DNA of 64,000 nucleotides, from NCBI GenBank assembly GCA_963752255.1, contig CAVVXT010000014.1, forward strand, positions 64,001 through 128,000. Reading direction: 5' to 3'. Numbering within the stretch: position 1 is the stretch's first letter; each line of letters starts with the position of its first letter. Of the stretch, positions 36,634 to 54,187 are shown one piece after another. The notes beneath the pieces were generated by a model. The model ran no database searches, was not told the origin of the DNA, and saw only the letters and a list, made by a program, of their open reading frames with translations. The stretch is from Nitrososphaeria archaeon. Lineage in GTDB: Archaea > Thermoproteota > Nitrososphaeria > JACIWG01. Made by a program: the position numbers and the translations under genes.

Positions 36634-36763
36634 TGGGGCTGGTGGGACTTGAACCCACGGCTTACGGGTTTCTTCACCCAGCTCCAAAACTACATCATCC
36701 CTGTAGTCAATATACCATATCTGTTCTGGAGCCCGTTGTCCTCCCTAGCTGGACGACAGCCCC
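36634..36763 (-). tRNA. tRNA-Trp(CCA) with 56-nt intron (36670-36725) at 37/38
   Basis: ACGGG-CT CCA G|A-CCCGT; 74-nt mature cloverleaf after intron removal. Confidence 0.9.
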
Positions 36764-36855
36764 TCCGACAAGTCATGCTACCATAGGAAGGGAAAATAAA
36801 AGTTTTTTATATCAAAAAAGAAAGCTTAATTAGTAGTTATTTGGGCGGTATTGTT

Positions 36856-36972
36856 TAGCCGGCCATAGTGTTATGGGCTCGACCTGGTCTCGTCAGATCC
36901 CAGAAGTCAAACCATATCACGCCATTGCGTTAGTGATGTGCAGAAGCCGTCGCGAAGCAGTGGTGCTGGCGC
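36856..36972 (+). rRNA. rrf: 5S rRNA (ends approximate), unlinked from 23S
   Basis: GCCGGC/GCTGGC terminal helix; GGCCATAG...ACCTGGTCTCGTCAGATCCCAGAAGTCAA motif. Confidence 0.88.
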
Positions 36973-36997
36973 CTTACAGTAAAAAAGTGAAAAAATA

Positions 36998-40976: not shown

Positions 40977-42512
40977 ATGGGGCAAGTAGATTTAATGGGC
41001 GTCGTACTACATCCGATCGAAGTCAAAATCCTTAGTGTGCTAAGGACGAAAGACAGTGTAAACCTTGAACTTCTCCCTTCAATTACCAGTCTCTCTCTAG
41101 ATCAGGTTCGACGCGGTATAGAGTGGCTAAAGGAAAAGAATCTGATCGAAGTACAAAAGGATTCGAAGGTTCTTATAGGGTTGGGTTCAGCTGGTGAGAG
41201 AAGCGTTAAAGACGGGCTTCCGGAGAAACGTATTCAATTGCTTTTGATGAATAAAGGGGGGAAGACCCCATTGGAGGATGTAAGAAAGGAACTGAAGATG
41301 GGTGAAAAGGAGTTTTCAGCAGCCCTAGGTATTTCGACAAGAAAGGGTTTGGTTAAATTGACAAAGGACGACAAAACACTTCTTGAAGCTGAAAGTGATC
41401 GAACGCTGTCAACAGAGTCCCTTATCAACAAAATTTTTTCTCTTAAAGAAATTGATGTCAGAACACTGAGCGAGGATGAAAAGGAAGCGCTTAAGGAACT
41501 GGAGAAGAGACCTGATTATATCTTATCAAAAGAAGTAAGTCAAACAACCATAAAGGTTTCCTCCCAGGCTTTGGCGATATTGGATGAATATCTGAGGAAG
41601 TCATATGAAAACAAACTTACTCCTGAACTACTTTTAACGGGAAGGTGGAGGGAAGTCGTCTTTAGACCATATGATATAGAGAGCCCTGTCCCAACACTTT
41701 ATCCTGGAAAAAAGCATCCAGTTCAGGATTTTATTGACAGGGCCAGAGAAATTTTCTTGTATCTTGGGTTTGAAGAAATCGAAGGCCCTATTGTTCTTCC
41801 TTCATTTTGGAATTTTGATGCACTTTTCATACCTCAAGATCACTCTGCAAGAGAAATGCAGGACACCTTCTATTTAAAGGATGTATCGGCAAAGGATCTT
41901 GAAAAGGAGGCTCCAGTGGACGCCATAAAAAACGTACACGAAAATGGTGGTGACACAGGTTCAACTGGCTGGGGTTATAAGTGGTCTTTGAAAGAAGCCA
42001 AAAAGATGGTGCTGAGAACCCATACTACACCGATTACTGTACAATATCTTTACGATCACAAGCCCTCATCAGCAAAAGTGTTCTCCATCGACAGAGTGTT
42101 CAGGAATGAAAACTTGGACAATAAGCACCTATTTGAGTTCTATCAGTATGAAGGGATAGTTACAGGTCGCAACGTCACGCTGAGAAATTTGATCGGGGTT
42201 TTAGGCTCCTTCTACAAAGAGCTCGGTTTTGAGAAGGTCAAGTTTTGGCCTACGTTCTTTCCGTACACTGAACCTTCACTTGAAGCTGTCGCGTACGTCG
42301 ATAGATTAGGAAAGTGGATAGAATTGTGTGGTATGGGTGTTTTTAGGCCAGAAGTAACTCTACCATCTGGCGTAAAGAACCCTGTTCTAGCTTGGGGAGG
42401 CGGACTTGAAAGATTGATAATGTTAGCTTACGATGTGGAAGAAATCAGGTTTCTGTATAAAAATAACTTGGACTGGTTGAGAAGTGTAAAATATGCCCGT
42501 ACTCACTATTAG
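40977..42512 (+). CDS. pheS: Phenylalanyl-tRNA synthetase alpha subunit
   Basis: FWNFDALF.PQDH.AREMQDTF, LRTHTT and FPYTEPS. Confidence 0.96.
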   Translation: MGQVDLMGVVLHPIEVKILSVLRTKDSVNLELLPSITSLSLDQVRRGIEWLKEKNLIEVQKDSKVLIGLGSAGERSVKDGLPEKRIQLLLMNKGGKTPLEDVRKELKMGEKEFSAALGISTRKGLVKLTKDDKTLLEAESDRTLSTESLINKIFSLKEIDVRTLSEDEKEALKELEKRPDYILSKEVSQTTIKVSSQALAILDEYLRKSYENKLTPELLLTGRWREVVFRPYDIESPVPTLYPGKKHPVQDFIDRAREIFLYLGFEEIEGPIVLPSFWNFDALFIPQDHSAREMQDTFYLKDVSAKDLEKEAPVDAIKNVHENGGDTGSTGWGYKWSLKEAKKMVLRTHTTPITVQYLYDHKPSSAKVFSIDRVFRNENLDNKHLFEFYQYEGIVTGRNVTLRNLIGVLGSFYKELGFEKVKFWPTFFPYTEPSLEAVAYVDRLGKWIELCGMGVFRPEVTLPSGVKNPVLAWGGGLERLIMLAYDVEEIRFLYKNNLDWLRSVKYARTHY

Positions 42513-44130
42513 ATACGACAGGTTTAATTCATTCTTAAAGAAGCCTCTTTCGAGCGGCCAAATCTTAGAGCTTCTACCCTATATCGGATTAGATATCGAA
42601 GACTCGAACAATGACGAAGTCAAGGTCGAATACAGCCCAAATCGTCCAGATTATGGGTCTCCAGCCGGTATCGCTAAGGCATTGAATTATCTTAACTTTG
42701 GAGAAGAGACGAAGGTGGAATACGATTTGCCAGCTTACGATATCCGAGTAAATGTAGATAAGAGTGTAGAAGCGATTAGACCGTATATACTTGGACTGTA
42801 TGCTAAGCTAGATTTCTCCGAATCTATCCTGAAGGAGCTCATATCCTTCCAGGAAGACCTTCACAACGGTATTGGGAGAAAAAGGAGAAAATTTGCCATA
42901 GGTTTACATGATGCGTCAAGAATAGTTCCACCGATCTATTACACAACTGAAAATGCAGGTTTTAAGTTTACACCCTTAAATGGCACTTCCCCTTTGTCAG
43001 TCGAAGAAATCTTAAAACAGACGGAACAGGGCGTTCATTATGGAAACCTTCTTTCTTTAAAAAACATTTTTCCGATATTGAAGGACTCCTTGGATCAAGT
43101 TCTCTCCCTCCCACCGATAATCAATGGAAATGTAACAGTTCTGACTGAAAGAACCAATAACCTCTTTGTCGACGTAACGGGAACCGAGCTTTCTCCGGTT
43201 GAGGATGCGCTAGCTTTGCTGGCTACAACCTTAATAGACTACGGTGCTTCTGTCTATAAGATAAAGATAGTCGGACCTGAAAGATCATTCGAAAGCCCAG
43301 TGTTGGCTCCGAAAAAAATGTACCTTAAAATTGACGAAATAAAACGAATCTTAGGCGTTACGACAGATTTTGATGAAACGATAAATTTGCTGAAAAAGGT
43401 CAACATGCGCTCTTTAAAGAAAGGAAACCTGATAGAGGTGTCCGTTCCAAGTTATAGAATCGATATCTTACATGAAGTTGACCTTATAGAGGAGGTTGGG
43501 TACGGCTATGGATACGATAAAATCACCCCACTTGAACTTCGTCTGCCACAGCAGGGTAAGCCACTGAAAGCCAAAGAAAAGGTTGATGATGTCCGCCTTT
43601 GTCTGATCGGTTTAGGATTCATAGAAGTCATGAACTTTTATCTTTCAAACAAAGAACTACAGCAACCTTTTTCGTCTTCTCTGATAGAGGTAGAGTCCCC
43701 TAAGACACAAGAATACAATGTACTCAGATGTTCCGTTATCCCCCAGCTTTTGCAGACACTATCATCGAATATTCATGAACAGTATCCTCAGAAAATTTTT
43801 GAGATAGGGCGTTCCTTCGAACTTAGGGAAGGCGGTCAGGAAATAGTAGAAAACGTTAAGGTATCCGCTATGATATCCCATTCTGAGACAACGTTTACGG
43901 AAATTAAATCGACCGCCTTTTCAATCCTTGATTACCTAGGAGTAAAGAACTGTAAGATGAATGCTTCATCACACGATTACTTTATCAACGGCCGTTGCGC
44001 CTCGATCTACGAGGATGGCGCATATATCGGTGTACTCGGAGAAGTGTCCCCTTTATACATTTCTCAGTCTTCCTTAAGAAACCCTGTAACCGCACTAGAA
44101 ATCAACCTGACAAAGTTACTTTCGAAATGA
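42493..44130 (+). CDS. pheT: Phenylalanyl-tRNA synthetase beta subunit
   Basis: NRPD, LPPIIN and RIDILHEVDLIEE. Confidence 0.95.
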   Translation: MPVLTIRYDRFNSFLKKPLSSGQILELLPYIGLDIEDSNNDEVKVEYSPNRPDYGSPAGIAKALNYLNFGEETKVEYDLPAYDIRVNVDKSVEAIRPYILGLYAKLDFSESILKELISFQEDLHNGIGRKRRKFAIGLHDASRIVPPIYYTTENAGFKFTPLNGTSPLSVEEILKQTEQGVHYGNLLSLKNIFPILKDSLDQVLSLPPIINGNVTVLTERTNNLFVDVTGTELSPVEDALALLATTLIDYGASVYKIKIVGPERSFESPVLAPKKMYLKIDEIKRILGVTTDFDETINLLKKVNMRSLKKGNLIEVSVPSYRIDILHEVDLIEEVGYGYGYDKITPLELRLPQQGKPLKAKEKVDDVRLCLIGLGFIEVMNFYLSNKELQQPFSSSLIEVESPKTQEYNVLRCSVIPQLLQTLSSNIHEQYPQKIFEIGRSFELREGGQEIVENVKVSAMISHSETTFTEIKSTAFSILDYLGVKNCKMNASSHDYFINGRCASIYEDGAYIGVLGEVSPLYISQSSLRNPVTALEINLTKLLSK

Positions 44131-44169
44131 TTAAGAAAACCTTTTATCCTATCAGGTCATTTCAGAGGG

Positions 44170-44336
44170 TTGACATCCGTCGTAAAAGCGTGGCGACGGC
44201 CCTAGCTGATCTAATGATGCATAGGGTTAACCCAGCAACGCGACAGACGGATGTCAAAGCCCCGCATAAAGAGGTTTGGTGAAATGCCTTTACAAGGCTC
44301 AGATGGTCCAAAACCGTTCAGAGGCGGGGTACATTC
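44170..44336 (+). ncRNA. Candidate two-hairpin H/ACA guide RNA
   Basis: Two long hairpins with internal pockets; apical K-loop CTGA-tcta-ATGATG; AAA and ACA boxes 14 and 15 nt from the pocket tops; TTTTAT promoter-like element at 44141. Confidence 0.72.
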
Positions 44337-44364
44337 TAATCGATCAAAGTTCAGCAGAAAAAAG

Positions 44365-44739
44365 TTGGTTGAACTAGAAAGGCTTATTGATGCCGTAAAG
44401 GCCCTTAATGATGAAATCAAGAACAATGCGCTGATCGTAGTTGAAGGACCAAACGATGCGAAAGCCTTAGATGAGTTAGGGGTAGTTGGGGTGCCATTTT
44501 TATACAGCCATAAATCAAATCAAGTCGACCTTTTTCAGTTGGCTCGTTCCTACTCAAAGGTCATAATATTAGTTGATAATGATAGGGAAGGTTGGTCTAT
44601 CTGTAAGAGGTTGATATCGAAGTTCAGTGTAAGAGGTATAAAATATGATTTATGGTATAGGAAGGAGTTATATAAAATCGGCGGCGGCTCCGTCCTTCAC
44701 TTAGAAGAGTTTCCTTCTCTAATTAAACGATTCATCTAA
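44365..44739 (+). CDS. Small TOPRIM-domain protein (TTG start proposed; the longer ORF overlaps the ncRNA)
   Basis: VVEGPNDAKAL and ILVDNDREG. Confidence 0.82.
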   Translation: MVELERLIDAVKALNDEIKNNALIVVEGPNDAKALDELGVVGVPFLYSHKSNQVDLFQLARSYSKVIILVDNDREGWSICKRLISKFSVRGIKYDLWYRKELYKIGGGSVLHLEEFPSLIKRFI

Positions 44740-44775: not shown

Positions 44776-45913
44776 TTGATAGAATTGTCAACTCCAACTA
44801 AATATTTAATACGTTTAAAATTTGACATTGAAGGCGTCGTCGAACGCGCCGACGTTGTAGGCGCGATTTTTGGTCAGACTGAAGGCCTTTTCGGCCCAGA
44901 ATTTGATCTAAACGAACTTCAGAAGACGTGGAAGATTGGCCGAATAGAGATAAACATAGAATCAAAGAACGATAGAACATTCGGTGAAGTACTGATACCT
45001 ACATCAACAGATTTCGAGACCACGAGCTTGATCGCTGCAACGGTTGAAAGCGTTGACCGCGTCGGTCCATGCAATGCAAGGTTCAAGATGATTTCAATGG
45101 AGGATATACGTGTTGAAAAGGTTAAACAGATAAAAGAGAGAGCTAAAGAAATTGCTAGGGACTGGTCCAAGAAAGTAATGACCGAAGGCGACAAAATACT
45201 GAAGGATATCAGTGAATCAATGGGCAAATCCAAGATTGTCGCTTTTGGTAAAGAAAAACTTCCCGCAGGTCCTGCTGTCGAGAAATCGGATACCGTAATA
45301 CTGGTTGAAGGACGTGCAGACGTTCTGAACCTTTTGCGTGCTAGGTATAGAAAATGCTGTCGGAATCGAGGGAACAGGTATCCCTCAGTCGGTAATAGAG
45401 TTAAGTAAAAACAAGAAGATAATTGCGTTCCTCGACGGCGATAGGGGTGGAGACCTTATTCTAAAGGAGCTTTCTCAGGTCGCAAAGATTGAGAAGGTAA
45501 TCAGAGCTCCGTCAGGCAGAGAAGTTGAAGAATTATCACCGGTAGAGGTGGTGGAATTGATTAGTGGGGTAAGTCAGCCTCCCGCTCCTCCCAAGAAGGA
45601 GCCTGTCAACGTTCAACCAGAAGTAGCAGAAAAGGTCAAACAGTTGAAACCCTCTTTAGATAATACTCTGGAAGCCATGCTTTTGGACGAAAATCTAAAG
45701 GAGATTGAGAAGATTCCTGTCAGCGAATTAGCTAAGCATCTTGAGTCGGAAGAGCTAGGCAACGCCAGATACCTGATATTTGACGGTATTATTTCACAGA
45801 GGATAGTCGATCTCGCAGAAAGAAGGGGTATTGTAGCGGTTGTTGGCCATAGAATAGGTGAGGTATCCAAAAAGTCTGCTTCTGTAGCGATTTCGACTAT
45901 GGATGATTTCTAG
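44776..45913 (+). CDS. dnaG: Archaeal DnaG (exosome-associated), split by a +1 frameshift near 45343
   Basis: DVVGAIFGQTEGL, VEGRADVLNL then GIEN, FLDGDRGG and FDGIISQR. Confidence 0.9.
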
Positions 45914-54088: not shown

Positions 54089-54187
54089 GGGCCGATAGTT
54101 CAGGGGTAGAATGCACGGTTAAAAACTTCCAAAGAAGTTTTCCGGACTGCATCCGTGAGGTCGCGGGTTCAAATCCCGCTCGGTCCA
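54089..54187 (+). tRNA. tRNA-Ala(TGC) with 27-nt intron (54121-54147) at 33/34
   Basis: G3:U70; the BHB-like fold gives CACGG-TT|TGC AT-CCGTG after splicing. Confidence 0.88.

Follow-up and report, generated by a model that had tools for sequence, protein, structure and literature searches.

What does the short interval between the pheT gene (42493-44130) and the following Toprim-domain gene, next to which lies dnaG, encode in the archaeal contig CAVVXT010000014.1? All coordinates are positions in a window of 64,000 nucleotides (nt), the whole stretch of DNA that was analysed, and the genome to which it belongs is labelled G000. The interval very probably holds the gene of a double-hairpin box H/ACA guide small RNA (sRNA) of about 165 nt, with a putative promoter of its own, predicted to direct the pseudouridylation of two uridines of the large subunit (LSU) ribosomal RNA (rRNA), U2755 and U2093. 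An unannotated two-hairpin RNA of the H/ACA type had been proposed at this locus in an initial annotation, and all the sequence elements listed there are found in the window where they had been placed.

The plus strand of residues 44172-44333 folds into two long hairpins with a minimum free energy of -66 kcal/mol, compared with -48.05 +/- 4.04 kcal/mol for shuffled sequences (z -4.44), and none of 200 shuffled sequences folded equally well. The minus strand was considered as the RNA and rejected: its fold is weaker (z -3.29), and the G.U pairs and the logic of the ACA boxes and the kink-loop (K-loop) suit the plus strand only. The nine sequences of the family have a mean column identity of 83%, and RNAalifold finds 40 pairs in them. 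Compensatory changes affect 11 of these, most of which belong to the outermost stem or to the upper stem of hairpin 1. In a class-wide alignment of 31 matches, 34 of the 40 pairs change on both sides. In this alignment, which was fitted to a covariance model and is for that reason biased towards structure, 93.4% of the cells are paired, compared with 66.8% when the partners are shuffled and 32-48% when they are slid. Given the shuffle test, the compensatory pairs and the slid-partner controls, the fold is treated as more than chance. Both the proposed two-hairpin RNA and the covariation expected of it are thus present, within the family and across the class. The features of the locus are collected in Table 1.

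Table 1. Features of the sRNA locus, in window coordinates (P0, P1 and P2 are the helices of hairpin 1 from the outside inwards).
Feature	Position	Strand	Remarks
B recognition element (BRE)/TATA-like element AAGAAAACCTTTTAT	44133-44147	+	25 nt before the first paired base; predicted start at about 44172
Whole sRNA	44172-44333	+	Begins with the closing helix and runs through the second ACA; predicted ends
P0, 5' strand GACATCCGTC	44172-44181	+	Pairs with GACGGATGTC (44246-44255); extra helix closing hairpin 1 and its ACA
P1, functional lower stem of hairpin 1, 5' strand GCGTGGC	44188-44194	+	Pairs with GCAACGC (44235-44241)
5' guide of hairpin 1, GACGG	44195-44199	+	The final GG is also paired in the upper stem, giving its two weakest bottom pairs (G.U)
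Upper stem P2 and apical K-loop of hairpin 1	44198-44228	+	Sheared pairs G44208/A44217 and A44209/G44216
3' guide of hairpin 1, AACCCA	44229-44234	+	Class core ACCCAG, extending into 44235; invariant in nine relatives but for one A-to-U
ACA box of hairpin 1	44243-44245	+	Within the internal loop that separates P1 from P0; spacing to the upper stem 14 nt
Lower stem of hairpin 2, CCCCGC	44260-44265	+	Pairs with GCGGGG (44324-44329)
5' guide of hairpin 2, AUAAAGA	44266-44272	+	Top AAGA / GAGA pairs with LSU 2095-2098; other positions vary
Upper stem, irregular kink-turn (K-turn) and apical stem GCC/GGC of hairpin 2	44273-44315	+	G44281/A44303 and A44282/G44302
3' guide of hairpin 2, GUUCAGAG	44316-44323	+	N-GUCAGAG in most relatives; U for G here, opposite C2092
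ACA box of hairpin 2	44331-44333	+	15 nt from the upper stem (8+6+1)
Toprim-domain gene	44284-44739	+	Pfam Toprim E 3.4e-12; 44284 is the probable start; start in the list of open reading frames (ORFs), 44251

Both hairpins have the H/ACA layout, in which a stem, a pocket and a second stem are followed by a single-stranded ACA. According to a published study, a productive archaeal guide has a lower stem of 7-9 base pairs (bp), ten stacked layers counted from the pocket up to the second G:A pair, and an ANA box at a distance of 14-16 nt (PMC4652768). The spacing to the box is 14 nt in hairpin 1 and 15 nt in hairpin 2, within this range. L7Ae-type motifs, a K-loop in one and a K-turn in the other, are present as proposed, and their tandem G:A pairs are invariant.

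Hairpin 1 is closed by the helix P0, of which six of nine pairs are compensatory in the family and all nine class-wide. The loop between P0 and P1 (GTAAAA / GACA) contains the ACA of hairpin 1; because P0 closes the hairpin, this ACA lies in an internal loop and is single-stranded but enclosed. The 5' strand of this lower loop is free to vary among relatives, being GUAAAA, AGACAU, AUAGAG, AAAAAU and others. P1 has seven positions in this genome, one of them a G.A mismatch, where the rule for the lower stem is 7-9 bp; in relatives a U-A pair becomes C-G and G.A or A.G mismatches become A-U, and four of its six pairs covary class-wide. The upper stem P2, in which GGCCCTA pairs with TAGGGTT, covaries class-wide in eight of nine pairs. 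Throughout the class it begins with GG paired to U or C, and one of its two bottom pairs is G.U in 24 of 25 rows. It is capped by the K-loop CTGA-TCTAAT-GATG at 44206-44219; in the nine relatives GA..GA is invariant here and the adjacent pair varies (U.U, U-A, C-G, A.A).

Class-wide, the invariant elements of hairpin 1 are a P1 of 6-7 bp, the loop GAC / AACCCA, the K-loop and an ACA at 14 nt from the upper stem. The ACA itself is found in all nine family members, in all class-wide hairpin-1 rows displayed and in nine of nine rows of other classes, and GACGG occurs in at least 98% of 100 Nitrososphaeria rows, though absent from the search pattern. The 14 nt (6+7+1) to the ACA apply when the upper stem is closed; with its two G.U pairs open the distance is 16 nt. 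Likewise, the layers from the pocket to the second G:A pair number 12 when the stem is closed, here and in the Nitrosopumilaceae-type rows, and ten only when the two bottom pairs (G.U or G-C) are open. We read the two G of GACGG as switch bases, which would leave the stem to pair with the target.

A different anatomy of hairpin 1 had been put forward in the initial annotation, with the lower loop GUAAAA/GACA as pocket 1, 44172-44181 and 44246-44255 as the lower stem, the hinge AAA as the box and UGUC-UN-UUUUAC as the target. The AAA does lie 14 nt from the loop top in this genome. However, the hinge AAA/AAAG is deleted in four of the nine family members and lacking from most rows class-wide, the 5' strand of the loop varies as described above, and more than 20 layers would separate the loop from the G:A pairs, against the ten reported for productive guides (PMC4652768). 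A strict, ungapped rRNA scan for UGUC-UN-UUUUAC gave no convincing site; the best rRNA match pairs at six of six positions on one arm and at only one of four on the other. This anatomy is highly improbable, and the invariant pocket of hairpin 1 is the upper loop, GAC(GG) / (N)ACCCA, with the ACA at 44243-44245 as its box.

Hairpin 2 (44260-44329) comes close to a textbook archaeal H/ACA motif. Its lower stem is invariant in the family, and class-wide its innermost pair is C-G in 13 rows and G-C in 11. The pocket is the loop ATAAAGA / GTTCAGAG, above which GGTTTGG pairs with CCAAAACC to form the upper stem; all seven upper-stem pairs and all three apical pairs covary class-wide, and GA/GA is invariant in nine of nine family members. 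Ten layers are counted in this hairpin if A44313 and GGU (44305-07) are bulged out, namely the 7-bp upper stem, a U.U pair and the two G:A pairs. Since three extra nucleotides are present on the strand without the bulge, its K-turn is not a textbook one. The guide form GUUCAGAG is shared by this genome and three more of the nine family members. The ACA of hairpin 2, at the distance of 15 nt from the pocket top already given in the initial annotation, is kept in all nine family members and in 30 of 31 rows class-wide. The sole exception, row L039:1501-1623, consists of hairpin 1 only, and its hairpin 2 with ACA is a separate row (L039:1378-1474).

The proteins of an H/ACA particle are encoded in the same genome, with all scores above the cut-offs: Cbf5 (TIGR00425, 404.6 bits), Nop10 (PF04135, 79.3 bits), Gar1 (PF04410, 34.3 bits) and L7Ae (PF01248, 107.2 bits). 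A box C/D sRNA was considered and rejected, because the RNA contains only an internal D'/C'-like K-loop, with no C box near 44172 and no D box near 44333. The only Rfam match inside the sRNA at E values up to 10, of the C/D family sR49 on the K-loop CUGAUCUAAUGAUG, is read as chance (18.8 bits, against a gathering score of 50).

The BRE/TATA-like element about 25 nt upstream of the RNA, described in the initial annotation, is present and is kept at the same distance in nine of nine family members. In all of them an A-rich block and a TTTTAT/TATATA block recur, and the 20 nt from there up to the RNA are variable. Judged from the sequence, a BRE/TATA-like promoter of its own would drive the sRNA. 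Two peat metatranscriptome runs from two studies (small shares, 0.07) each yielded one 151-nt contig on 44187-44334, with 95-99% identity. Each contig has four differing letters, among them G44242A and A44251G. The former concerns the unpaired base before the first ACA, a variant that also occurs in relatives; the latter changes a U-A pair of P0 into U.G and removes the ATG at 44251. Both are neutral for the structure. The contigs are silent on strand, ends and level, and the uncovered flanks are no sign of silent neighbours. Since they have neither ends, strand nor level and RNA libraries can contain DNA, they are only a hint of expression; the double-hairpin RNA is probably expressed.

The guides were compared with the small subunit (SSU), LSU and 5S rRNA of this genome, and significance was assessed against 1000 shuffled guides. 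In the form of the relatives (N-GUCAGAG with AAGA), hairpin 2 pairs with LSU residues 2086-2092 (CUCUGAC) and 2095-2098 (UCUU), leaving U2093-C2094 unpaired. These 7+4 Watson-Crick pairs make up the best rRNA site, and one of the 1000 shuffled guides was as good. The tentative assignment of this pocket to helix 69 in the initial annotation is in line with this, with the proviso on the guide of this genome given below. The most likely target of hairpin 2 would be U2093, in the 3' strand of helix 69, 4 nt 3' of the counterpart of Escherichia coli 1917; we take it to be E. coli 1921. The counterparts of E. coli 1915 and 1917 themselves were rejected as sites of hairpin 2, because its 3' guide pairs across these uridines.

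In the open form of hairpin 1, AACCCA(G) pairs with LSU 2748/2749-2754 (UGGGUU at 2749-2754), directly 5' of U2755, and GACGG with LSU 2759-2763 (CCGUC). This gives 6+5 = 11 Watson-Crick pairs around U2755, for which 17 of the 1000 shuffled guides were as good; the second of the two duplexes can form only if the upper stem opens its two bottom G.U pairs. The most likely target would be U2755, in the peptidyl-transferase region, where it is the third U of GGGUUUAG. It is the counterpart of pseudouridine (Psi) 2605 of Haloferax volcanii and presumably of E. coli U2586. Since the Nitrosopumilaceae-type guides have one base less, the U modified there may be the second of UUU. The target stretch of hairpin 1 is identical in the four loci that hold it (G000, G016, G279 and G238). 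For the helix-69 stretch, G000, G016 and G220 agree throughout, and G279 agrees with them until an insert that follows CUCUCU. This insert in the LSU of G279 (locus L195, of another class) is about 35 nt long and stands right after the 3' strand of helix 69, where the sequence reads CUCUCU-CAAAUCC...GGGAGAGAA-AGGUAGCC; the corresponding sequence of this genome is UUAAGGUAGCC.

Put together, the RNA would be transcribed from the BRE/TATA-like promoter, starting near 44172. L7Ae would bind the K-loop or K-turn of each hairpin and the PUA domain of Cbf5 the lower stem and ACA, and each hairpin would, with Cbf5, Nop10 and Gar1, become a pseudouridine synthase particle. Hairpin 1 is predicted to pair on both sides of U2755 once its two bottom G.U pairs have opened. 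Hairpin 2 would present U2093 by pairing (G)UCAGAG with LSU 2086-2092 and AAGA with 2095-2098.

Several observations weigh against a double guide with these two targets. With the stem of hairpin 1 closed, its 5' guide is 3 nt long and no rRNA site with at least three pairs on both arms was found; with the stem open, four target bases (UAGA) stay unpaired, compared with the usual two, and the ACA lies at 16 nt. The lower stem of hairpin 2, at 6 bp, is under the canonical 7-9 bp, which its 8-nt 3' guide offsets (sum 14), and its K-turn is irregular. The hairpin-2 guide of this genome, GUUCAGAG, needs a U bulge or a U.C mismatch next to the target to fit helix 69, and when contiguous pairing is strictly required, its best site lies elsewhere and lacks significance (132 of 1000 shuffled guides as good). 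Rfam 15 has no family that reaches its gathering score on the sRNA, and no H/ACA family (such as HgcG, RF00064) is among the 13 gathering-level matches of the window. At E values up to 10, region 44050-44450 has three matches, none to an H/ACA family, so that the Rfam search suggested at the outset gave no H/ACA family at either level. Lastly, the contigs from the RNA runs may hold DNA.

The unusual geometry of hairpin 1 raises the question of whether the particle modifies its targets at all. An H/ACA-type ribonucleoprotein could serve as a chaperone of rRNA folding or processing, like snR30/U17, pairing with the peptidyl-transferase centre and helix 69 without modification. The four unpaired target bases and the 12-layer upper stem of hairpin 1 would suit such a role, as would the 5' guide of hairpin 2, which is weakly conserved outside the family. 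Moreover, the three LSU pseudouridine sites given for Sulfolobus islandicus in Table 1 of a 2024 study do not include the counterpart of the hairpin-1 site (PMC11077068). However, that site is a proven H/ACA-guided pseudouridine in Haloferax, where four unpaired target bases (UNUN) are tolerated when ACA is present (PMC7075261), and both target uridines here lie at the right distance (14 nt) from an ACA. A chaperone without modification is therefore considered very unlikely, and the comparison with known systems is made for a guide.

The closest known RNA is sR-h45 of Haloferax, a likeness judged from its published description and not from a sequence alignment. According to that description, its 5' stem-loop makes Psi2605, the U before A2606, two bases after 3-methyluridine (m3U) 2603 and the third U of U-U-U-A. 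In helix 69, Psi1940 and Psi1942 are the products of its 3' stem-loop, in which four target bases (UNUN) stay unpaired; such atypical pockets require the ACA, and the most 5' unpaired U is converted (PMC7075261). When the two RNAs are compared on this basis, they share two H/ACA stem-loops, the order of the targets (U-U-U-A of the peptidyl-transferase region, then helix 69) and the uridine that hairpin 1 would address. Also common to both are the need for sheared G:A pairs, an ANA between the stem-loops, an ACA at the end and a pocket able to hold four unpaired target bases. They differ in the linker, which in sR-h45 has 56 nt with a possible pseudoknot and here 0-4 nt. P0 has no counterpart in the helices reported there around the box of the first stem-loop. 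In helix 69, sR-h45 makes Psi1940/1942 (E. coli 1915/1917), whereas the guide described here pairs across both and presents a U four bases 3'.

In Pyrococcus abyssi, Pab91 is a single hairpin for 23S Psi2685, and Pab40 (with Pf7 and Afu4) has three motifs, the third of which is directed to 23S 2016 in helix 69 (PMC2377435). These are likewise archaeal H/ACA motifs with a K-turn or K-loop and ANA, and their targets are in LSU domains IV and V. The two functions are on separate RNAs in Pyrococcus, compared with one RNA here. Pab91 and motif 3 of Pab40 are, by analogy, likely functional counterparts of the two hairpins. Psi2685 would be the target site of hairpin 1 provided that domain V has the same offset as separates Pyrococcus 2016 from E. 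coli 1917, as we infer. For the second site, the study of S. islandicus equates its U2060 with yeast 2260 and E. coli 1917 and its U2066 with yeast 2266 (PMC11077068). On this scale, the predicted site of hairpin 2 is yeast 2264. We assume that yeast 25S 2264 is a pseudouridine guided by snR3.

Like eukaryotic hairpin-hinge-hairpin-tail small nucleolar RNAs (snoRNAs), the RNA consists of two hairpins, the first followed by an ANA-type box and the second by an ACA. Eukaryotic Nhp2 needs no K-loop or K-turn. The RNA described here differs in its L7Ae-type K-loop and K-turn and in the helix that encloses its first box, and common descent is not inferred. Nor does the layout have to be called eukaryote-like, as it was in the initial annotation: H/ACA sRNAs with two or three hairpins have been described in archaea before (PMC7991803, PMC7075261). 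Within this known class, the RNA is unusual in several respects, which in part rest on the predictions given above: P0 encloses the first ACA, the upper stem of hairpin 1 has 12 layers including two switch pairs, four target bases are left unpaired, and the RNA overlaps a start codon, a point to which we return below.

A DNA search finds the block in eight of the nine other genomes of the same family and in none of 51 genomes of other families. Among 151 genomes of the class, 33 have a match to a covariance model of the RNA (R1) used with strict filters: 8/9 in family f1, 3/9 in f2, 11/81 in f5, 4/8 in f6, 2/2 in f10, 3/3 in f11 and 1/3 in f12, with 0/14 in f3 and 0/17 in f7. With a broader model (R2) the RNA turns up in 19 of 19 f5 genomes and, among other classes of the phylum, in 29 of 131 genomes; both models match 44172-44333 at full length. 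A motif pattern search of named genomes gave at least 120 loci, and 100 of the 100 loci of this set that were tried have a full-length match to R1. Among the 80 titles listed, 75 are of ammonia-oxidiser-type Nitrososphaeria/Thaumarchaeota (Nitrosopumilus, Nitrosarchaeum, Nitrosotenuis, Nitrosopelagicus, Nitrososphaerales, Nitrososphaerota), and the other five read 'archaeon' (twice), 'Crenarchaeota archaeon', 'Thermoproteota archaeon' and 'marine group I thaumarchaeote'.

When rows of other classes are aligned, nine of ten hold hairpin 1, and of these eight have GACGG, nine ACCCA and nine ACA. In L183, L184, L186-L189 and L191, hairpin 1 is kept together with its closing helix. The guides of hairpin 2 differ in other classes, examples being GUUAGUU and GAUAGGUAU accompanied by a 5' AGAGA; their rRNA targets were not placed, helix 69 of one of these genomes being outside the locus examined.

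The neighbourhood of the RNA is also variable: pheT is upstream in 24 of 30 loci, and Toprim and dnaG are downstream in 16. In Nitrosopumilaceae-type loci, a gene for an EVE domain, which is PUA-like, follows 35-55 nt downstream (L027:1708-2148 and L023:1707-2114; Pfam E 2e-40 and 5e-43). Its presence in place of Toprim implies that the RNA is a gene of its own.

In the family itself, the RNA and the Toprim gene are more closely connected. The apical stem of hairpin 2 contains an ATG, at 44284, that all nine family members retain, and the frame from it into the Toprim domain is open in all nine, with 2-10 stops in the other two frames. In-frame stops occur upstream of 44284 in four of the nine, and the ATG at 44251, from which the ORF list starts the gene, is present in only four. 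Insertions or deletions just before the ATG at 44284 are of 1-2 nt; the one after the RNA is of 3 nt. The sequence GAGGU, 8-10 nt upstream of 44284, matches the anti-Shine-Dalgarno sequence CCUCC at the 3' end of the SSU rRNA. The Toprim coding sequence of this family thus probably starts at 44284, and since the frame is open from this conserved ATG in all nine members, RNA and coding sequence would overlap by about 50 nt, the last of the RNA. The initial annotation held that the RNA is hidden under an over-extended ORF; this applies to the start at 44251, but the frame from 44284 is genuinely open.

Could protein coding explain the conservation by itself, as an N-terminal extension of Toprim from 44251 or 44284? 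The ORF is open from 44251 in this genome and from 44284 throughout the family. Against this, conservation and compensatory pairs reach 113 nt upstream of 44284, where four of the nine have in-frame stops and the indels before the ATG are not multiples of three, and the same RNA is found beside unrelated genes. The covariation (11/40 and 34/40 pairs) and the frame analysis of the nine relatives refute coding as the sole explanation, and its probability is practically nil.

The start codon in hairpin 2 could also mean that the structure is a cis-acting leader of the Toprim-dnaG messenger RNA, in which K-turn hairpins, bound by L7Ae or folded by themselves, hide GAGGU and the ATG at 44284, and the likeness to H/ACA RNA is secondary. 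The position of this ATG, its conservation with the open frame and the anti-Shine-Dalgarno match at GAGGU agree with such a leader. So do the lack of a T run between RNA and coding sequence and the three of nine relatives (G005, G003 and G006) in which no other canonical start was seen before the Toprim core. On the other hand, the RNA is kept with the same guides in the 14 of 30 loci without Toprim downstream (EVE-domain gene instead), and four other families have the start of the Toprim gene 17-31 nt beyond the RNA. A leader also leaves unexplained the invariant ACA at 14-15 nt and the guides complementary to rRNA. We consider it very unlikely that the RNA is chiefly a leader.

A less exclusive arrangement, rather unlikely but deserving mention, is that hairpin 2 of the guide RNA also serves for starting the translation of Toprim-DnaG, the start region comprising GAGGU, the AUG at 44284 and about 17 first codons. 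One transcript would then have two exclusive fates, an H/ACA particle that hides the start or translation, and P0 and the 12-layer switch stem would form a distinct Thermoproteota-type architecture. If so, the capacity for rRNA modification would be coupled to the level of the primase/exosome-associated module.

For the genome in question, the conserved 'intergenic' block after pheT would be explained by the guide RNA and the start of the Toprim gene corrected. No report of an H/ACA guide RNA for Thaumarchaeota or Nitrosopumilus was found in the literature, in which 'H/ACA' is unsearchable as a term and subscription journals were outside the scope. The RNA would be the first concrete H/ACA guide of ammonia-oxidising and other Nitrososphaeria (Thaumarchaeota), with two predicted sites in the functional core of the ribosome. 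The 2024 study describes the H/ACA RNAs of Crenarchaeota as single-hairpin (PMC11077068), and a double hairpin with a first module that recurs in other classes of Thermoproteota would widen this picture. The order of targets common with sR-h45 suggests an ancient two-site guide.

Elsewhere in the window, the Rfam scan, with its 13 gathering-level matches, locates the end of an LSU rRNA, the signal recognition particle RNA, a 5S rRNA and transfer RNAs (tRNAs). A match to ceN44, a C/D-type Rfam family, on the minus strand at 44107-44159 spans the pheT stop and the promoter region and is read as chance (20.1 bits, compared with a threshold of 70; E 0.1). Downstream of the Toprim gene, dnaG is split into the overlapping frames 44776-45408 and 45338-45913, with a break near 45329-45405; in G001, G004 and G008 it is a single frame, continuous to the end of the locus, and the split in this genome is a frameshift, either real or an assembly error. 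Two of the tRNA matches, 36634-36763 on the minus strand, which adjoins the 5S rRNA gene (36855-36974), and 54089-54187 on the plus strand, are 130 and 99 nt long, from which introns are probably present.

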